Numbered from the stretch's first letter, positions 38,672 to 47,881 are shown. The stretch: 64,000 nucleotides of DNA from an uncultured bacterium (GCA_964472305.1 CAYYJR010000001.1:25346-89345); one strand, 5' to 3'. Made by a program: numbers and translations. Notes: generated by a model from the letters alone, not told the origin.

Positions 38672-40816
38672 CTATTCCTTCCGTTCGTACATGACCAGTT
38701 CGCTGGTGAGCGCGCTGTCCAGCTCGATCGGCAAGCCCGCGAATGCCAGCTCGCGACCCGACATACGGAAACGCTGCCCGCCATTGTCCAGCGTCACCTC
38801 GTAGTCGACCCCGGCGTCCACGCCGCGCAGGCGCAGCCGGTATTCCCCGGCGCCGTTGAGGAGCTTGAACACCCCGGCGTAGCCGCGGCTGCGGTCGGGA
38901 CGGGCGTATTCCAGCACGCACCATTCGGTCGGCGTCAGGAGGCCGATGTCCGGCGTGTGGTGATGGACGACCGGATGCCCCGCCAGCACCGGGCGGCAGA
39001 AACCCTTGTGTAAGCCGACATAGCGCCGGACCTTGGCAAAATACTCCGTCGCGCGGTCGGCGCCTTGCGAGCCGAAGCCGACGAAGATCGGCACGGCGAA
39101 GAGCGCGACGCGCAGGTGCGTGTCGAGGTCGCCAACCTGGTGGGCGTGCTGGACATGGTTGTGATAGTAGCAGAGCGACTCGGGCGGAATGAAGAGGGTC
39201 AGCGCGTTGATGCAGCGGATGCTGTAGGGCAGCACGCTCCAGTCGGACTGGCAGGCGTAGTGGAAGCGGGCGAGCATGCCCAGGTCGTTCCGGCCGCCGC
39301 CCGCCGCGCAGTTCTCCAGGCAGACATCCGGGCACTCCTTCAGGATGCGGTCATAAGCTCGGTGGACGGCTTCGGAGTGCCGCCAGATTTCCGCCTCGGC
39401 GTAGCCGTCGCGCACGGTCTGGCCGCCTTCGCCGGTCATGACGTTGTAATCGAGCTTGTAGAAGTCGAGGTTGAAGCCCTTGATGATATTGACGATCGAA
39501 TCCTCGTAGTACGTCGCGGCAGCCGGATTGGCGAGGTCGAGCGTGTCGGCGCAGTCCCGCTTGTCGTCGGTCCGGAGCGTCCACTCCGGGTGCTCCTGGT
39601 ACGCCCGGGTTTTTTTGCTCAGCGCCTCCGCCTCATGCCAGAGCCCGAAGAGCATGTCCTTTCCATGGGTGTAGTCCCGCAGGCCCGTGATGCCGCCCGC
39701 CGGCAACCAGTCACCCTCGAACCAGTCGCCGCGGTGCTGCCACCAGTCGGAGAAGTCGTCCCCGTACCAGCCGGCATCGACCATGAAGGCCTCCACGCCC
39801 ATCTCGGCGGTGATGTCGATCTCGCGCTTGATCCAGTCGCCCTTCTCCTCCACCACGCGGCCGGCGATGGTATACATCTCCCGGCCCTGCGGGCGCGGCG
39901 GGATGACACTCGCGCGCATGTGCCGGTGCCACTGCGCGACAGCCGCATCGAAGGACCCATGCATGGGGCCGAGATGGACCTCGGGGCTGATGACGGTCTC
40001 GCCAGGAGCGATCAGGCGTAGCGGCGCCGGGGCCAGCGGTCCGATGCGAAAGGAAAGCACGGAGTCGTAGCGGTAGGCGAACTCCGCAAAGAAGTTGCCG
40101 CCCCAGGCCAGCCCGAGGAAGAACAGTTCCCCGGTCACTTCGTTCCGCAGGATGTAATAGGGCGAGCCGAACGCGCGCCCGTGTTCCGTCCGCTCGATGC
40201 GGAAATGCTCCTTCGGCAAGGGCTGCCAGGTGAATCCCCCTTCCAGACCCCAAACGTCGTCTGCCAGGTAACCGAGGGAGAACTTGGACCGGCCCTCGCG
40301 CTCCTCGAAGGCGGGGTTCCGGATCTTGTTGGAAAAAGGCTGGGGAGCGTCATCCGTGTTCCAGAGAACCCCGGACCAGGGCGAGACATGGCCGAGCGCG
40401 GCCGGCTGATCACCGGTGTTGGTGATCTCCAGATATCGCGCCAGCACCGGCGTGCCGTCGACCCGCGTGACCACCTTGACGGTGACCGGGCGCACCTGGT
40501 GCCGCAATTCCACCACGGCTTCTTCCGTCCCCGTGCGCTTCCCTTCGCGGCGGGAAGTTCCGACAAGGTTCCATCGGTTGTGCAGCGACTGCCCGTCGAT
40601 CTCGAGTTCAAAGGCGTGGACCGGGCGCTTCAGGGAATCCAGCCCCGGCAGGCCGGGGAGGACATTCTCGCGGTGGACATGCCCGCTGGCCGACCAGTAG
40701 AGTCCGATCCAGCGACCATGCTCCAGCGCTTCCTCGCACACGGCGGTGTCCGAAACGTAACGGGCGCCGGGGCGGGTGGAGGTGGGGAAACTGAGTTCGA
40801 CTTTCATTGCGTTCAT
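38672..40816 (-). CDS. Glycoside hydrolase family 36 (alpha-galactosidase-like)
   Basis: 714 aa; GH36 motifs (EAFMVDAGWYGDDF, FYKLDYNV, CAAGGGRND). Confidence 0.8.
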   Translation of the reverse strand: MNAMKVELSFPTSTRPGARYVSDTAVCEEALEHGRWIGLYWSASGHVHRENVLPGLPGLDSLKRPVHAFELEIDGQSLHNRWNLVGTSRREGKRTGTEEAVVELRHQVRPVTVKVVTRVDGTPVLARYLEITNTGDQPAALGHVSPWSGVLWNTDDAPQPFSNKIRNPAFEEREGRSKFSLGYLADDVWGLEGGFTWQPLPKEHFRIERTEHGRAFGSPYYILRNEVTGELFFLGLAWGGNFFAEFAYRYDSVLSFRIGPLAPAPLRLIAPGETVISPEVHLGPMHGSFDAAVAQWHRHMRASVIPPRPQGREMYTIAGRVVEEKGDWIKREIDITAEMGVEAFMVDAGWYGDDFSDWWQHRGDWFEGDWLPAGGITGLRDYTHGKDMLFGLWHEAEALSKKTRAYQEHPEWTLRTDDKRDCADTLDLANPAAATYYEDSIVNIIKGFNLDFYKLDYNVMTGEGGQTVRDGYAEAEIWRHSEAVHRAYDRILKECPDVCLENCAAGGGRNDLGMLARFHYACQSDWSVLPYSIRCINALTLFIPPESLCYYHNHVQHAHQVGDLDTHLRVALFAVPIFVGFGSQGADRATEYFAKVRRYVGLHKGFCRPVLAGHPVVHHHTPDIGLLTPTEWCVLEYARPDRSRGYAGVFKLLNGAGEYRLRLRGVDAGVDYEVTLDNGGQRFRMSGRELAFAGLPIELDSALTSELVMYERKE

Positions 40817-40935
40817 GCTCTCTCCTTGCGGTCAAATTTCTCCCCCGGATCGCCCATGATTGTATCGAACGTTCGCACCCGTTTAATCCGGTCGGCGCGG
40901 GAGAGGAAGTGTTCCAGAATGTCTTTGGCCTTCAT
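40814..40935 (-). pseudogene. 39-codon remnant ORF homologous to the N-terminus of the Nif3-like gene, bridging URO-D-like and GH36 genes by ATGA overlaps
   Basis: Own translation of minus strand 40935-40814: MKAKDILEHFLSRADRIKRVRTFDTIMGDPGEKFDRKERA-stop, versus Nif3-like N-terminus MKPRDILEHFISRSAWVTPGKTADRLIMGDPEEDFDR; its ATG overlaps the URO-D-like stop and its TGA overlaps the GH36 ATG. Confidence 0.5.
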
Positions 40936-41897
40936 GGGGCGATCCTTTTGCCTGCCGGTAATTCCCGCGCCACCTCGATCAGGGCCTCAATATTCCGCAA
41001 CGGAACATCACCCTGGATGCACTGTGCCGGTGCAAAGATGTACCCGCCTCCCACACCCATCAGGTCGCGCACCCTCCGGGACTCGGCGCGGACCTCGTCC
41101 GGGGTGCCATAGGGCAGCGTGCGCTGCGTGCTGAGCCCGCCCCAGAACGTCAGTTTTGCACCATACAGTCGCTTGAGTTCGGCAATGTCCATGCATTCCG
41201 GCTGGACCGGATTCAGCGCGTCCAACCCCATCTCGACCAGAGACGGCAGCAGCTTCGAGATACATCCGCAGGAATGGACCCAGACATCCTTGCCGTACGA
41301 ATGGATCAGGTCGTACTCGCGCTGTTCGCCCGGGCGGATCAAGTCCTCCCATACGTCCGGGGCCATCAGCAAGTCACATTGTGAACCCCAGTCGCTGCCG
41401 AGGAGGACACCGTCGATCTCCGCCATGCCCAGGATTATCTCGAGCATGACCATGTTCCGATCGACGATTTCGGTGCACAACCGCTTGGCAAACGGATAGT
41501 CGCGCGCGATGTCGCACAGGAAGTTCTCGATGCCGCGCGAGAAATACGCCTTCTCGAAGTGGCTCCCATACACCATGGCCAGGAGATACTTGTCGGTCTG
41601 CTCGCGCAGGGTCTTCACCTTGCGCTCGAACTCGTCGAAGTTGCCGTAACCCTTTATATTCGCGCGCGAGACCGGGGTCTCGAAATCCGTCCAGTCCGCG
41701 CCCAGCTCATGCCACCCCCACCAGGGCGGAAACACCTGCCGGACGTCGTTGCCGAACCACTCTTCCACATCGGCCACGCCCTTGACCCGCCGGATCTCGT
41801 CCTCCGTCTCGCCGCAGGTCATGATGCAGTATGGAGTTCGCTCCGTATCCTTATGCGCCAGAGCAGCCTTGACCAATTCGCGTGATGTCATAACCAT
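40932..41897 (-). CDS. Uroporphyrinogen decarboxylase (URO-D) family protein (MtaA/CmuA-like)
   Basis: 321 aa; URO-D/methyltransferase-like TIM-barrel pattern (CIMTCGETEDE..., HSCGCISKLLPSLVEMGLDALNPVQP, GGYIFAPAQCIQGDVP). Confidence 0.7.
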   Translation of the reverse strand: MVMTSRELVKAALAHKDTERTPYCIMTCGETEDEIRRVKGVADVEEWFGNDVRQVFPPWWGWHELGADWTDFETPVSRANIKGYGNFDEFERKVKTLREQTDKYLLAMVYGSHFEKAYFSRGIENFLCDIARDYPFAKRLCTEIVDRNMVMLEIILGMAEIDGVLLGSDWGSQCDLLMAPDVWEDLIRPGEQREYDLIHSYGKDVWVHSCGCISKLLPSLVEMGLDALNPVQPECMDIAELKRLYGAKLTFWGGLSTQRTLPYGTPDEVRAESRRVRDLMGVGGGYIFAPAQCIQGDVPLRNIEALIEVARELPAGKRIAP

Positions 41898-42005
41898 ATC
41901 CTCAAGTGTTGCCTAACCGTCAATATGCCAATATCGCCAATGGATGTCAGCTTCCCATTGGACATTCCTCGTTACCACCACTGCCCACCGCCCACCGCTC
42001 ACCGC

Positions 42006-43742
42006 TCAGCCAGCCATAAGCCCCCGCTCGCCGAGCGACTTGATGACCTCCTTGTGCCATTCGCGCAGGCGGCGGCTGATGTGGTACTCGTCGTGCGGCT
42101 GCCGCTTGTCCCAGCGATCCGCAAGTTCCGCCAGCACGGGCAGTAGGTCGTTCAGCCGCTTCGGATCCGGGAAGCCGGGATTGGTCTTGTCGGTGCACAT
42201 GTGGAAGTAGTGCACCTCGGCTTCTAGAACGACATGGGCTGCCCGCGCGAAGAAGGCGAAATCCTCGAACTTCTGCAGGATGAAGCGCTGCGCGTCGGCC
42301 TCGAGCTTCGCTACCGCCGGCCGGGCGCGGGCGAGCAGATCCTCCGCATCCGCCAGCGCCTGCCGCTTCTCCTCGACTAACGCCGCCGGCCCGACGGCCC
42401 GGTACGACGGGCCCATGGTCCCGGCGTGATACGGCACAAGGCGATAACTCGGCATGCCCATCTTGAGCGGGTATGGGAATACCGTTCCAGCCTTGGCGGT
42501 CAGCACCTCGCCATGGCCCAGCCATCCCCAGACCAGATTGATGTCGGGCAGGATGGACTGGGCGGTGAACCACCCCTGCCCGGCATAATACACACGCGCC
42601 GCGACTCCTTCGACATCCAGGAAGACCTCCGCCAATTCCGGCAGATCCACGCCGAACTCGTTCCGCAGGAACTCGCACAGCACGTCCCGCGGATTTATGT
42701 CCGGGTCCATCGCACGCCGGAAGAAAAACTCGGCGTTGAATCCTCCGAGCGTGTCGAAGCAGCAAAGCTCCAGGTCGGTCGGGAGCGGCTCCCCGTCCCG
42801 CACCCACGCGAGCTGGGGGTACAGTGCTCGCCGGCCCGGCAACACATTCGCGTGCGGACTCCACGAGTCGTGGATGGTGGCAATGCGGGCGTTGACGTAG
42901 GCGGCACCCAGAGCCCGCGCTTCCTCGAGATGCTGGGCGAGCTGCGACAGGTTGACGCTCGGATAGAAGTTGCGCCCCCAGTACTCGGAATGGACGTCGA
43001 AATGCACCAGCAGCGGATTCGTCGACGATGCCCGGTACAGGTGCAGGTTGAACGGTGTGCACAGGTGGAAGTCGCCGATGGTGTCATCCGCGCTGACGAG
43101 TATATCCGGACGCTTGCGGGCCGCGGCGAGCAGCGCCTCGACGGCGCGCCGGTGGCCGCCGCCGACGTGCAGGTCCACCGACAGCTCCAGGTTATGCCGG
43201 ACGCACTGCTCATGTACCGCGCCGACGATCCGGTCCAGGTACTCCTCCATCGGCACCGTCTGATGCTGGAACTCGCTGACCACGACTTCTGACCCTTCCT
43301 CGATCCACAACTCGAGGCCGGTCAGGTTCGGCGCCAATTCCAGGAGTTCGTCCACCTGGTCCTGCAGCAGTTCGTAAATCCGGGGGCTGCGCATATCCGG
43401 CTCACCGGCGGCATTGAACAGTCCCTCACCCGCCGCGCCCCACTGCGCCGCCGGCGGCATCATGATCGCATGGAAGCTAAACCAGAACCCGATTCCGGCT
43501 TCGCGGCACATCGCGGCGGCTTGCCGCAGGTTCTCGCGCATGACCTGGACGTGCTGCCTCTCCTCCGCCCCGAGCAATCCCGGGTATTTCGGGAACAGGA
43601 ACGGTCGCCCGGCGTAACAACCGCGACCGACCGTCCAATGGACCAGTTGCGACACGCCGTGCGCCCTGGCGAAATCCACCAGCCGTCGCCAGTGCGCCGG
43701 ACTCCCGAAATCACTGGATAGTCCAATTTTCATGGGTTTCAT
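42006..43742 (-). CDS. Uncharacterised protein, tandem paralog A (possible TIM-barrel sugar-active enzyme)
   Basis: About 578 aa from ATG 43742 or 43733 (MKPMKIGLSSDFGSPAHW...); no family recognised; N-terminus resembles the MKLGI start of xylose-isomerase-like TIM-barrel proteins; highly similar to the adjacent paralog. Confidence 0.6.
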   Translation of the reverse strand: MKPMKIGLSSDFGSPAHWRRLVDFARAHGVSQLVHWTVGRGCYAGRPFLFPKYPGLLGAEERQHVQVMRENLRQAAAMCREAGIGFWFSFHAIMMPPAAQWGAAGEGLFNAAGEPDMRSPRIYELLQDQVDELLELAPNLTGLELWIEEGSEVVVSEFQHQTVPMEEYLDRIVGAVHEQCVRHNLELSVDLHVGGGHRRAVEALLAAARKRPDILVSADDTIGDFHLCTPFNLHLYRASSTNPLLVHFDVHSEYWGRNFYPSVNLSQLAQHLEEARALGAAYVNARIATIHDSWSPHANVLPGRRALYPQLAWVRDGEPLPTDLELCCFDTLGGFNAEFFFRRAMDPDINPRDVLCEFLRNEFGVDLPELAEVFLDVEGVAARVYYAGQGWFTAQSILPDINLVWGWLGHGEVLTAKAGTVFPYPLKMGMPSYRLVPYHAGTMGPSYRAVGPAALVEEKRQALADAEDLLARARPAVAKLEADAQRFILQKFEDFAFFARAAHVVLEAEVHYFHMCTDKTNPGFPDPKRLNDLLPVLAELADRWDKRQPHDEYHISRRLREWHKEVIKSLGERGLMAG

Positions 43743-43874
43743 TTGCGTCTCTCGTGTTGTTGTCATCGGCGTTCCTTTGTGGTCAGCCTTAGCGAGGTCC
43801 CCTTCTGCCCCAGCGCAAACATCGTCCCCCTGCGCCCGCATTGGTCGTGTTAATAGTGGCGCCATTTTCGCTAT

Positions 43875-45596
43875 TTATGCCAGCAGCCCCCGCTCGCCGA
43901 GCGACTTGATGAGTTCCTTGTGCCATTCGCGCAGGCGGCGGCTGATGTGGTACTCGTCGTGCGGTTGGCGCTGGTCCCATTGGGCTGCGAAGTTCGCCAG
44001 CACGGGCACCAGTTCGTTCATGCGCCGCGCGTCGGGGAAGCCGGGATTCGTCTTGTTGGTACACATGTGGAAGTAGTGCACCTCGGCTTCTAGAACGACA
44101 TGGGCTGCCCGCGCGAAGAAGGCGAAATCCTCGAACTTCTGCAGGATGAAGCGCTGCGCGTCGGCCTCGAGCTTCGCTACCGCCGGCCGGGCGCGGGCGA
44201 GCAGATCCTCCGCATCCGCCAGCGCCTGCCGCTTCTCCTCGACTAACGCCGCCGGCCCGACGGCCCGGTACGACGGGCCCACCATCCCGGCATGGTACGG
44301 GATGCGCAGGCTCGGCATGCCCTGGGCAAACGGGTAGGCAAAGGCCGCCCCGGCCTTGGTGGTCATCACCTCGCCATGGGCGAACCACCCCAAAACCAAG
44401 CCCATATCGGGCAGAACGGACTGGGCAGTGAAGGTCCCCTGCCCCGCATAATACACGCGCGCCGCGACCCCTTCGACATCCAGGAAGACCTCCGCCAATT
44501 CCGGCAGATCCATGCCGAACTCGCCGCGCAAGAACTCGCACACGGTCTCCCGCGGCGAGGCGGTCGGATCCTTCGCCCGGCGGCAGAAGAACTCGGCGTT
44601 GAACCCGCCGAGCGTGTCGAAGCAGCACAGCTCCAGGTCGGTCGGGAGTGGCTCCCCATCTCGCACCCGCGCGAGCTGGGGGTACAGTGCTCGCCGGCCC
44701 GGCAACACATTCGCGTGCGGACTCCACGAGTCGTGGATGGTGGCAATGCGGGCGTTGACGTAGGCGGCACCCAGAGCACGCGCTTCCTCGAGATGCTGGG
44801 CGAGCTGCGACAGGTTAACGCTCGGATAGAAGTTGCGCCCCCAGTACTCGGAGTGCACGTCGAAGTGCACCAGCAGCGGGTTCGACGTCGCCGCCCGGCA
44901 CAGATGCACATTGAACGGCGAGTGCAGGTTGAAATCACCGAAGGTGTCGTCCGCGCTGACCAGGATCGCCGGCCGCTTGCGGGCTGCGACCAGCAACGAG
45001 TCGACCGCGAAGCGGTGCCCCCCCATGACGTGCAGGTCCACCGACATCTCCAGGTTGTGGCGGACGCACTGCTCATGTACCGCGCCGACGATCCGGTCCA
45101 GGTACTCCTCCATCGGCACCGTCTGATGCTGGAACTCGCTGACCACGACTTCTGACCCTTCCTCGATCCACAACTCGAGGCCGGTCAGGTTCGGCGCCAA
45201 TTCCAGGAGTTCGTCCACCTGGTCCTGCAGCAGTTCGTAAATCCGGGGGCTGCGCATATCCGGCTCACCGGCGGCATTGAACAGTCCCTCACCCGCCGCG
45301 CCCCACTGCGCCGCCGGCGGCATCATGATCGCATGGAAGCTAAACCAGAACCCGATTCCGGCTTCGCGGCACATCGCGGCGGCTTGCCGCAGGTTCTCGC
45401 GCATGACCTGGACGTGCTGCCTCTCCTCCGCCCCGAGCAATCCCGGGTATTTCGGGAACAGGAACGGTCGCCCGGCGTAACAACCGCGACCGACCGTCCA
45501 ATGGACCAGTTGCGACACACCGTGCGCGCTGGCGAAATCCACCAGCCGCCGCCAGTGCTCCGGCGTTCCAAAATCACTGGATAGTCCCAGTTTCAT
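43875..45596 (-). CDS. Uncharacterised protein, tandem paralog B
   Basis: 573 aa from ATG 45596 (SD AAAGGAGAG); MKLGLSSDFGTPEHW...; near-identical to paralog A over long blocks. Confidence 0.6.
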   Translation of the reverse strand: MKLGLSSDFGTPEHWRRLVDFASAHGVSQLVHWTVGRGCYAGRPFLFPKYPGLLGAEERQHVQVMRENLRQAAAMCREAGIGFWFSFHAIMMPPAAQWGAAGEGLFNAAGEPDMRSPRIYELLQDQVDELLELAPNLTGLELWIEEGSEVVVSEFQHQTVPMEEYLDRIVGAVHEQCVRHNLEMSVDLHVMGGHRFAVDSLLVAARKRPAILVSADDTFGDFNLHSPFNVHLCRAATSNPLLVHFDVHSEYWGRNFYPSVNLSQLAQHLEEARALGAAYVNARIATIHDSWSPHANVLPGRRALYPQLARVRDGEPLPTDLELCCFDTLGGFNAEFFCRRAKDPTASPRETVCEFLRGEFGMDLPELAEVFLDVEGVAARVYYAGQGTFTAQSVLPDMGLVLGWFAHGEVMTTKAGAAFAYPFAQGMPSLRIPYHAGMVGPSYRAVGPAALVEEKRQALADAEDLLARARPAVAKLEADAQRFILQKFEDFAFFARAAHVVLEAEVHYFHMCTNKTNPGFPDARRMNELVPVLANFAAQWDQRQPHDEYHISRRLREWHKELIKSLGERGLLA

Positions 45597-45801
45597 TTGC
45601 TCTCCTTTGTCGCTCGTTTTGTCGTAAGCGTTACCGTAGCGCTACCTTCTTTCCGTTAGTTCCGGCATCGGCTGCGCGTGCGGCACCACCATCTTCGGCA
45701 GGTACCGGTACTTTGCCTCGTGGTTTACCTGGTGCAAATCATTAAAATGCGATTCCGTTTTTTCTGTGTTCCCGATGGTCCCGTCGTTGGCGGGACGTAG
45801 G

Positions 45802-45837
45802 GTGCCAAACGTGGAAGTCCATTTCCACGTTTGGCAC
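45802..45837. promoter_or_regulatory. Perfect 15-bp inverted repeat with 6-bp spacer (candidate operator or RNA hairpin)
   Basis: GTGCCAAACGTGGAA-GTCCAT-TTCCACGTTTGGCAC at 45802-45837, about 200 bp upstream of paralog B start, in a 770-bp lower-GC intergenic region. Confidence 0.4.
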
Positions 45838-46364
45838 TGGATAGTCTTGCCGTCCTTCGAAATCCTGGTGCACAAGCTAGCCTGACCGTAAATCGCCGGC
45901 ATAACCTCGTCCGCGCCCACGTCGCCGGGCTTAAGCCAGGCCAGCGGTGTCCAGGTACAGCAGGTGGTCGTTTGCCGCGTCCGCAGGCAATCCGCACTGC
46001 AGTTACCGGGGGATGTCGTAGCTGATCTCCCACGGGCCCTCGACGGGGACGCGAAAAAATATACCGTTGAGTTCCAACTCGAGTTGTGGCATAGCCATCT
46101 CCTGCGATCTGCCGCCCAGGGGTGATAAGGGGATCAGACAGTACCAGTTCCCTGCGCAGCGGACATGACATCGCGCAAACTTACTACATCGGCATATCGC
46201 TGTCAATAACCGTCTGATCCAATGCCGTCCACTTACCAAAGAGCCTTGATTATGACAAAAATACGATATCGCTGTGATGCGAGTGCGACATTGCCGGCGT
46301 ATCGTCGTATATAGGACAGAAGCGACATGCGCCACAGCAATGCGAATGCAGAGGAGAGTGATCG

Positions 46365-47858
46365 ATGAAACACCTGCACGGTATGATGACAGGCATATTG
46401 TTTCTGGCGCTGCTGGCCATGGCGGCGGTGGCGCAGGAAGGCCGGCGTGGTGGGGAGGATGGCAAGCGCCGTCCCGCGCTGGAGCAACCGTTGCCGGCGG
46501 CGGTCGCCACCGAGGCGACGCTGTCCGTCGTGTTGGGGCGTCCGACGAATACCGAGATCACCCTGAGCATCCTCTCCGCCGGTACACGGGAAGCGTATCT
46601 TGAATATGGCACGACGCAGGGAGTCTATCCCCGGCAGACGGCGCAAGTGACCCTGCCGGCCCATACCCCGGTGGAGGTGCTGCTGAACGGCCTGCAAGCG
46701 GATACGCGGTATTATTACCGCGTTCGCACGCGGCAACCCGGCGAGGCCGCATTTGCCGCGGGTGCGGCGCATGCCTTCCACACCCCGCGCGCGCCCGGCA
46801 GCGCCTTCACCTTCGCCGTGCAGGGCGATTCGCATCCGGAACGTCCGCAGCAACACGATTCCGCGTTGTACGCGCAAACGCTGCAGGCCGTGGCGGCGGA
46901 CCCCCCGGACTTCTACCTTACCATCGGCGACGATTTCAGCGTGGATACGCTCCGCACCATCAATGCCGAGACCGTCCAGCAGCTCTACCTGCGCCAACGG
47001 TATTTTCTGGGATTGCTGGGTCAGTCCACTCCACTGTTCCTGGTTAACGGCAATCACGAGCAGGCGGCGGCGTGCAACCTGGACGGCACGCCGGACAACA
47101 TCGCTGTCTGGGCACAGACGGCGCGCAACGCGTTATTCCCGCAGCCAGCGCCCGATACTTTTTACACCGGCGACGCGCAGCCCGTGGCGCATATCGGTTT
47201 GCTGCGCGATTACTACGCCTGGACGTGGGGTGATGCCCTTTTCGTGGTGATCGATCCCTACTGGCATTCGTCGCAGCCGGTGGATAACATTTTTGGCAGC
47301 CGCGATAAAGGCGGCAAAGGCGGTCGCGACCGCGACCTGTGGGAAAGCACTCTGGGCGATGCGCAATACGCCTGGCTGAAGATGACGCTGGAGAAGAGCA
47401 CGGCAAAGTACAAATTCGTCTTCACCCACCACATGCTGGGCACCGGGCGCGGCAACGAATTGGTCGGACAATTCGAGTGGGGAGGCAGGGATCGCAACGG
47501 CCGGGACCTGTTCGCCGCCAAGCGTCCGGGGTGGGCGATGCCCCTGCATCAGCTTTTCGTGAAGACCGGCGTGTCGATTCTTTTCCAGGGTCATGACCAC
47601 GTCTTCGCGCGGCAGGTCATCGATGGCGTCACCTACCAGACGCTGCCCGAACCCGCCGATCCCAATTATGCGCTGTACTTCTCCGAAGCTTACCCGGCGG
47701 CGGACACGCGGCCCAACACCGGTTACGTGCGTGTGACCGTCTCCCCGGACAAAGCGACAGTGGCCTATATCCGGCAATACTTGCCAAACGATGAAACGGC
47801 TGACCATAAGAGCGGTGAGGTGGCATTCAGCTTCACCGTCGCTCCCCGCAAGCCGTAA
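46365..47858 (+). CDS. Secreted calcineurin-like metallophosphoesterase (purple acid phosphatase-like)
   Basis: Signal peptide (MKHLHGMMTGILFLALLAMAAVAQE); metallophosphoesterase motifs in order QGDSH, TIGDDF, VNGNHE, FTHH, QGHDHVF; SD GAGGAG. Confidence 0.8.
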   Translation: MKHLHGMMTGILFLALLAMAAVAQEGRRGGEDGKRRPALEQPLPAAVATEATLSVVLGRPTNTEITLSILSAGTREAYLEYGTTQGVYPRQTAQVTLPAHTPVEVLLNGLQADTRYYYRVRTRQPGEAAFAAGAAHAFHTPRAPGSAFTFAVQGDSHPERPQQHDSALYAQTLQAVAADPPDFYLTIGDDFSVDTLRTINAETVQQLYLRQRYFLGLLGQSTPLFLVNGNHEQAAACNLDGTPDNIAVWAQTARNALFPQPAPDTFYTGDAQPVAHIGLLRDYYAWTWGDALFVVIDPYWHSSQPVDNIFGSRDKGGKGGRDRDLWESTLGDAQYAWLKMTLEKSTAKYKFVFTHHMLGTGRGNELVGQFEWGGRDRNGRDLFAAKRPGWAMPLHQLFVKTGVSILFQGHDHVFARQVIDGVTYQTLPEPADPNYALYFSEAYPAADTRPNTGYVRVTVSPDKATVAYIRQYLPNDETADHKSGEVAFSFTVAPRKP

Positions 47859-47881
47859 CGACAAGTTGAAAGGAGACAACT

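Follow-up and report, generated by a model that had tools for sequence, protein, structure and literature searches.

Concerted evolution by gene conversion is well documented in bacteria, with the tufA/tufB genes and the rRNA operons as textbook cases. In such cases, long tracts of paralogs from the same genome are fully identical, synonymous sites included, beside diverged sequence; the paralogs pair with each other inside the tracts, and each pairs with an outside sequence between them. Among glycosidases, the nearest known counterparts of the proteins treated here are the GH67 alpha-glucuronidases (Geobacillus stearothermophilus AguA, 1k9d/1k9e; Cellvibrio japonicus GlcA67A, 1gqi) and the GH138 alpha-galacturonidase of rhamnogalacturonan-II breakdown (BPa0997/BT0997, 6hze/6hzf). 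The current work concerns two adjacent genes, A and B, in a stretch of 64,000 nucleotides (nt) from an uncultured bacterium (GCA_964472305.1, CAYYJR010000001.1:25346-89345), which is called the window below. We consider it likely that A and B are TIM-barrel glycosidase paralogs of a glycan operon, that they stem from old A-type and B-type lineages, and that recent gene conversion has brought them into concerted evolution. The pair resembles the textbook cases in both of the above respects. Unlike them, its homogenisation is partial, the patches that it has kept fall on loops with a likely part in forming the substrate pocket, and the enzyme family is an uncharacterised one.

The initial annotation had described two open reading frames (ORFs) here; ORF analysis, translation and codon-position GC content bear this out and place both on the minus strand (Table 1). 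GC at the three codon positions is 0.69/0.43/0.80-0.84 in both ORFs, in a window of 63% GC. A and B are thereby marked as the frames that truly code, and the antisense ORFs arise incidentally from the high GC. B is an exact match of public protein P0001 on a 452-kb NCBI contig and has the ribosome-binding site AAGGAGA 5 nt 5' of its ATG. A has AAAGGA 6 nt 5' of its ATG and, in this 586-residue form, equals public protein P0177; another possible start at 43742 would give 578 residues, and the open frame reaches 43865. A third copy of the gene was not found in the window. A signal-peptide-like N-terminus was not seen in A or B when they were inspected by eye, no predictor being run.

A and B are 90.4% identical in DNA and 88.9% identical in protein, with 166 differences over 1719 aligned nt (83 transitions, 84 transversions) and 63 amino-acid differences. 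The offset between the copies had been given as 1863 bp. This holds for most of the length and changes to 1866 nt past a 3-nt indel near 42440-42446. Sliding identity shows that divergence is not uniform: long identical stretches lie between divergent patches, just as first described, and the peptide patches quoted in that description are present as written. Three exact tracts were found (Table 1). Tract 1 spans strands beta2 to beta4 of the predicted barrel and includes the invariant E146; tract 2 sits within a 94.5%-identical stretch (A 42760-43030) of the beta7/beta8 region, with D246, E250 and R283. Between the exact blocks A-B identity is 78-86%. Patch 1 encodes the loops that follow strands beta5 and beta6 and surround the invariant D216, G220, D221 and N229. 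Patches 2 and 3 (B residues about 323-439), which have the 3-nt indel at their 3' edge, take in helices that follow beta8 as well as the loop region past the barrel, with its low-confidence loop at 423-437. The 5' gene end is 80% identical between the copies, and at the other end A 42013-42225 is about 86% identical to B, with synonymous divergence (dS) of 0.78 and a nonsynonymous-to-synonymous ratio (dN/dS) of 0.24 for B residues 512-545.

Tracts of this length are far beyond chance. When the differences were shuffled in 10,000 rounds, the longest clean run had a mean of 55 and a maximum of 138 nt, compared with the 458 observed; calculated analytically, a clean run of 458 nt has a probability of 6e-21. 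At third codon positions only, the clean run extends over 152 codons, compared with a shuffle maximum of 77. By the Nei-Gojobori method, dS is 0 in the 458- and 220-nt tracts and 0.05 in the mid stretch around the 108-nt tract; in the patches it is 0.52-0.78, with dN/dS of 0.12-0.44. Values of this order in the patches indicate old divergence under purifying selection and not faster amino-acid change.

The same figures bear on patchy diversifying change, the second explanation put forward in the initial annotation. In this scenario, positive selection or programmed variation (a diversity-generating retroelement, cassette switching) would have targeted the patches, and the amino-acid changes do fall in short patches, some of them in loops beside the putative active site. 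However, dN/dS is 0.12-0.44 in every patch, with dS of 0.5-0.8; synonymous changes are clustered just as much as replacements; transitions and transversions are balanced; and adenine makes up 24% and 18% of the differing sites in the two copies, which shows no adenine bias. The patches are moreover 90-98% common to a gene of another metagenome, and hence represent inherited lineages rather than variation made locally. No inverted repeats were detected in 40000-48000, nor any PADLOC or PHROGs match at E<=0.01, and a defence or phage origin of A and B was likewise dismissed on the latter ground. A diversity-generating retroelement was ruled out on dN/dS and the substitution spectrum, no search being made for a reverse-transcriptase gene. 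Targeted diversification is therefore regarded as extremely improbable.

Two close relatives from Logan assemblies, contigs L001 and L002, served as outgroups. L001 encodes P0002, 87% identical to B, in a genomic context other than that of the window: one flank is a BNR-repeat gene (weak Pfam match), and the other a gene that appears GH26-like by eye from its translation. L002 (2 kb) encodes P0003 (84%); over L002 1-2032, the 5' end and the upstream 24 nt are B-like, and the body and downstream flank are A-like, this flank being ~85% similar to the sequence 3' of the A stop codon. From this layout, L002 may be one real recombinant gene of a relative; it may equally be a tandem pair that the assembler collapsed, or jumped across, at the shared 5' block. 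Because it may be a collapsed pair, it is no proof of a single-copy state.

In the four-way alignment, 71 parsimony-informative sites join A with B against L001 with L002, versus 42 that join A with L002 and B with L001, and the two kinds alternate in blocks. The former fill gene nt 60-540, 780-1020 and 1380-1560; the latter fill nt 540-780, 1200-1380 and 1620-1740. The pattern switches exactly at the identity-block boundaries, and sliding four-way identities agree. In tract 1 the informative sites, also 42 in number, all join A with B against L001 with L002. Identity of B to L001 is 90-98% in the patches; in patch 1 it is 90-95%, and A is nearest to L002. At the 63 residues that differ between A and B, P0002 agrees with B at 43 and with A at 10. 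A has 68 unique differences, clustered in two patches and matching no sampled sequence. Thus the marks of gene conversion are present together: tracts identical beyond chance, synonymous sites included, and segment-wise incongruence relative to the two outgroup contigs. The suggestion of gene conversion between the copies gains support in this way, both from zero-dS blocks beside patches of dS 0.5-0.8 and from quartet patterns that switch at their boundaries.

The direction of transfer can be addressed for one tract. Tract 3 is 92-98% identical to L001 over its 5' two-thirds and 87-88% at its 3' end, and 82-88% identical to L002; being nearer to L001, it is B-type, and it was probably copied from B into A. 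An A-to-B direction for the 5' tract was considered and withdrawn, A=B being about equally far there from both outgroups, which lie close together.

The locus had also been described as a tandem 1.86-kb duplication. The part of this that stands is the presence of adjacent, co-oriented paralogs. Their homology is, however, limited to the coding sequence (CDS) and a short leader: it starts about 25 nt 5' of the start codons and stops at the stop codons, and the flanks are less than 50% identical. The spacer is unique, with no likeness to the other flanks of the pair or to L001 and L002 and no exact match in the metagenome collection. Since only the CDS and ~25 nt are shared, the spacer is unique and a B-type gene is found elsewhere in a relative, old lineages that are now adjacent are indicated, not a fresh 1.86-kb segmental duplication. 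We have weighed the opposite order of events, in which a recent in-situ tandem duplication was followed by import of the patches from related strains or dispersed paralogs, the identical blocks being remnants. The 90-98% identity of the B patches to the L001 gene, which belongs to another metagenome and a different context, would fit such import, and so would the 68 unmatched differences in two patches of A; the layout of L002, with its B-like 5' end and A-like body and downstream flank, is what an unduplicated or collapsed locus would be expected to show. A recent segmental duplication should, however, leave duplicated flanks or sharp identical ends, and here both gene ends are diverged, homology stops at the CDS and the spacer is unique. 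Import would have had to occur separately four or more times in this pair of adjacent genes, whereas conversion between neighbouring paralogs gives the same pattern by one well-known process. Later import is accordingly considered unlikely.

An assembly artefact would be a more trivial source of the mosaic: the assembler may have placed two strain variants of one gene head to tail, or assigned patches to the wrong copy across the exact repeats. The contig is metagenome-assembled and is the single assembly with the locus, the 458- and 220-nt exact repeats exceed typical short-read k-mers, and other samples have A-like and B-like alleles in what appear to be single genes. Against this, A and B are joined by a unique stretch of 108 nt, where A has a ribosome-binding site of its own and an N-terminal extension, and an assembler would not make up such a junction. 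The outer flanks of the two copies show no relation to one another, each frame is intact and normal in its coding statistics, and the contig has a length of 452 kb. On the independent contig L001, the B patches are linked in the same way for about 900 nt, and family paralog pairs exist in other genomes (L009; L011/L012; L003/L004, two contigs of one metagenome-assembled genome, MAG). We therefore hold an artefact to be very improbable.

Partial homogenisation of two old lineages by gene conversion thus remains the favoured history. A and B would be adjacent, co-oriented genes of an Armatimonadota glycan-degradation operon; the spacer between them has no terminator-like site in the scan that was made, so the pair is probably co-transcribed. 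The two lineages would have parted long ago, as synonymous divergence of about 0.5-0.8 suggests where the original sequence survives. Non-reciprocal homologous recombination between the neighbours would then have recently overwritten at least three tracts (458, about 110-270 and 220 nt), and the older differences outside the tracts would have been kept under purifying selection. What would limit homogenisation is selection for two slightly different substrate specificities. The 63 differences concentrate at residues 184-238, 338-362 and 388-439. The first group lies on either side of D216, D221 and N229, in loops that follow beta5 and beta6, and the last in post-barrel loops; the beta4, beta7 and beta8 regions, with E146, D246, E250 and R283, lie within the homogenised tracts. 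From this arrangement in the predicted structure, we infer that selection for two specificities may stop conversion at these loops.

Gene conversion between neighbouring paralogs is well known, and the evolutionary part of this history is ordinary. The example is unusually legible, with three exact tracts, sharp edges and outside sequences that expose two older lineages. If the assembly is confirmed, the pair could show selection on specificity loops limiting the homogenisation of tandem enzyme genes.

The initial annotation did not recognise the protein family. As far as sequence libraries are concerned this was correct: A and B had no match in Pfam, NCBIfam or the PDB (phmmer), the family profile had none in the PDB, and a Pfam scan at E<=1 gave just sub-threshold DUF2087 and AP_endonuc_2. 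Structure and a superfamily profile go further and place the family as distant GH67/GH138-like TIM-barrel glycosidases. An AlphaFold2 model was obtained from a 31-sequence alignment, with a mean local confidence (pLDDT) of 87 and a predicted template-modelling score (pTM) of 0.90. It has barrel strands at 2-7, 29-32, 82-88, 137-143, 183-187, 212-216, 241-246 and 279-285, followed by a helical bundle. The best Foldseek match was GH138 (6hzf, E=3e-12, TM score 0.59-0.60), next came GH67 alpha-glucuronidases (1k9e, E=8e-12, TM score 0.58) and then GH20 and GH84; the top fold matches are glycosidases throughout. The likeness to GH20 and GH84 (beta-N-acetylhexosaminidases, O-GlcNAcases) lies in the barrel only, with 260-350 aligned residues at 7-13% identity, and no alignment of the GH20 D-E or GH84 D-D catalytic pairs with residues of A and B was established.

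Remote homology agrees with the fold. A 99-sequence superfamily profile matched GH67 in the PDB at E=2e-22, and in the superfamily alignment D221 corresponds to GH67 D364, D246 to E386 and E250 to E392, together with an 'N-x-x-F...D-P' motif. When the close family was compared with that GH67 segment by hhalign, the same register was recovered with a weak score. A profile of the first half-barrel did reach GH138, at E=0.002 over chain residues 167-291, with G139 aligned to G287; if the register is extended from this Gly, E146 comes to stand opposite GH138 Glu294. GH138 gave no significant match to the full family (A1) or superfamily (A2) profile, only to the half-barrel one. E146 follows beta4 (137-143) and is present in 91 of the 99 superfamily sequences; E250 follows beta7 (241-246) and is present in 97. 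A (beta/alpha)8 barrel with conserved acids at the C-terminal ends of beta4 and beta7, as in glycoside hydrolase TIM barrels, is thus predicted for both copies. In GH67, E285 is the acid and D364/E392 are the base candidates (PDB titles name the mutants E285N and E386Q), and in GH138 we take E294 and E361 to be catalytic (a PDB entry name has 'E361S'). The equivalent of GH67 E285 falls outside the aligned region, and E146 is a candidate from its position at the beta4 end and its near-invariance. On the model and these alignments, the catalytic carboxylates are probably E146 (end of beta4), D221 (after beta6) and E250 (after beta7), kept in A and B alike.

Membership of GH67 itself was rejected, on sequence models and on domain architecture. 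The Pfam domains Glyco_hydro_67N, 67M and 67C are not detected in A or B. GH67 enzymes have an N-terminal beta-sandwich before the barrel, whereas A and B lack that domain and start at barrel strand beta1 (residues 2-7); GH67 genes have a xylan gene context, whereas A and B stand among GH36-like, GH95 and URO-D-like genes. GH138, the best fold match of the family, has about 860-890 residues with extra domains, unlike A and B. A and B are most fittingly assigned to an unclassified family within the group of GH67/GH138-like barrels, probably a new glycoside hydrolase family.

Several observations count against the history and the enzymatic assignment proposed here. The locus is carried by one public assembly, which is metagenome-assembled, so the pair and its phasing across the 458-nt repeat stand at the assembly level; contig look-ups with the exact proteins of A and B gave no second assembly of the locus. 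The outgroup evidence consists of two short Logan contigs, one of which, L002, is possibly an assembler collapse. In tract 1, A=B is 82-87% identical to both L001 and L002, which are close to each other. The nearness of the patches to the active site is read from barrel topology, not from measured distances. GH67 and GH138 are remote homologs, at about 11-12% identity; the family profile A1 had no PDB match to GH67 at E<=10, and the hhalign probability against GH67 is low. Lastly, the Lys of the GH67 'IKNGPMD' motif corresponds to an Asp, D216, which is invariant in the close family; Lys is found in 66 of the 99 superfamily members. This Lys reportedly binds the uronate carboxylate, and its replacement by D216 makes it probable that the substrate is not a GH67-type uronic acid.

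A search of 5.8 billion clusters gave 30 relatives, none with a Pfam domain, and the few whose source was named were from Kiritimatiellae and Lentisphaerae. Genome scans added MAGs of Methylacidiphilales, Verrucomicrobiia, Planctomycetota, Pirellulales and Acidobacteriota. The window host is placed in Armatimonadota by DnaX, which is 65-70% identical to that of named Armatimonadota MAGs; the spread of family members over Armatimonadota and these other groups indicates a patchy distribution. An exhaustive profile search found 218 representatives, mostly matching the barrel alone. Among the distant relatives, P0038 (family-profile match at E=2.5e-103) and P0053 both carry the GH67 N-terminal domain. 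Near-invariant positions in the 99-sequence superfamily alignment are P135, E146, D221, E250, G253, R283 and N333; all are kept in A and B, and A keeps every family-invariant residue.

Several genomes have dispersed family copies, and directly adjacent ones were found only in this window among about 30 family loci. In L009, two copies of 76% amino-acid identity have one gene between them; their nucleotide identity varies from 57 to 98% and the longest exact run is 55 nt, an unevenness that hints at older conversion there too. A second tandem pair had been suspected in L015 and L016, where L015b (574 residues, no Pfam domain) directly follows a family member, but this protein is not a paralog. 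As separate observations, such a 574-residue protein without a Pfam domain stands directly 3' of a family member in L015 (10726-12450), L016 and L020, and a homolog 52% identical to the L015 protein lies near a family member in L007 (6330-7871).

Table 1. Coordinates of the gene pair, its identical and divergent segments, and the neighbouring genes
Feature	Position	Strand	Remarks
Paralog B	43875..45596	minus	573 aa; predicted cytoplasmic (beta/alpha)8-barrel glycosidase with C-terminal helical bundle
Spacer	43767..43874	minus	108 nt, unique; from B stop to A start
Paralog A	42006..43766	minus	586 aa counted from ATG at 43766
Tract 1	A 43198-43655 = B 45061-45518	minus	458 nt, 100% identical; B residues 27-179
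Divergent patch 1	A 43031..43197	minus	78% identity; dS 0.65, dN/dS 0.22
Tract 2	A 42807-42914 = B 44670-44777	minus	108 nt exact
Divergent patches 2 and 3	A 42446..42759	minus	79% identity; dS 0.52-0.63, dN/dS 0.12-0.44
Tract 3	A 42196-42415 = B 44062-44281	minus	220 nt exact, offset 1866; C-terminal helical bundle
Divergent 3' part	A 42013..42195	minus	last helices of bundle
URO-D/MtaA-like gene	40932..41897	minus	Pfam URO-D 7.5e-17; NCBIfam MtaA/CmuA match below cut-off
GH36-like gene	38672-40816	minus	Pfam scan
NIF3-like gene	about 37827-38660	minus	Pfam scan
GH95 gene	35173-37500	minus	Pfam scan
Second GH36-like gene	33066-35336	minus	Pfam scan

On the minus strand the cluster runs in the order B, A, URO-D/MtaA-like, GH36-like, NIF3-like, GH95, GH36-like (Table 1). 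Some of these partners recur. GH36-like homologs occur within 10 kb of family members in L007, L008, L009 (beside both copies), L010, L031 and L036, and URO-D-like genes near family members also at the P0004 locus, in L009 and in L015, the last with a sulfatase too. The most likely role of A and B, as their predicted structure and setting suggest, would be that of a cytoplasmic exo-glycosidase trimming one terminal sugar from imported fucose- and galactose-containing oligosaccharides, beside the GH36-like and GH95 enzymes; we infer this role from the fold, the conserved carboxylates and the neighbours.

What is new here, to a modest degree, is the placement of the family, for which E146, D221 and E250 can be named as candidate catalytic residues. 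It concerns a group of ~570 residues, with some 30 close relatives and a wider superfamily of about 220 representative clusters, from Armatimonadota, the PVC group and Acidobacteriota. With its recurring GH36-like, fucosidase and URO-D-like partners, the group offers a concrete target for the discovery of carbohydrate-active enzymes in uncultured glycan degraders.

A more speculative scenario, which we think very improbable, joins the family and its URO-D/MtaA-like neighbour in an oxygen-independent route for O-methylated sugars, where a GH67-like release would be followed by demethylation and the two paralogs would fit two decorations. GH67 specifically recognises the 4-O-methyl group (PMC8056927), and O2-dependent P450 demethylases are known from aerobic degraders (PMC6292453). 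If the scenario is true, a URO-D/MtaA-like methyltransferase step would stand in for these P450 enzymes in the host of the window, a presumed anaerobe with an [FeFe]-hydrogenase. When the literature was searched for a tie between URO-D-like genes and glycan loci or sugar demethylation, no relevant work came up.

Further features were observed around the pair and in related loci. The two GH36-like (Melibiase) genes of the window are mutually distant, and each has homologs beside family members in other lineages. At L009 4618-14346, in a PVC-group MAG, a module of a family member and a GH36-like/NPCBM gene is tandemly duplicated after a GH29 fucosidase. The region of about 770 nt directly 5' of B (45597-46364) has no convincing gene, and its GC is 0.553 versus 0.627 for the window. 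Its open stretches shift frame and are broken by stops ('...LELNGIFFRVPVEGPWEISYDIPR*', then a 92-residue ORF in another frame), so that the region has the look of a gene in decay, set between glycosidase and phosphoesterase genes that point away from each other. The phosphoesterase (46365-47858, plus strand) is a purple-acid-phosphatase-like metallophosphoesterase. Next to it is a 168-residue ORF (47882-48388, plus strand), whose N-terminus is hydrophobic and signal-like; over 106 residues it shares 41% identity with the C-terminal part of the phosphoesterase. The two form a second, older, partial tandem paralog pair in the neighbourhood.

Elsewhere in the window, at 23862-28577 on the minus strand, a fusion with an [FeFe]-hydrogenase large subunit adjoins a NuoF-like flavoprotein with Fe-S domains. 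Electron-bifurcating hydrogenases typically show this pairing, a sign that the Armatimonadota host may be an anaerobe. No Rfam family was found near the gene pair. The sole Rfam match in the window is a ribosomal protein L10 leader (RF00557) at 16786-16943 on the minus strand, which scored 45.5 bits against a gathering threshold of 44.

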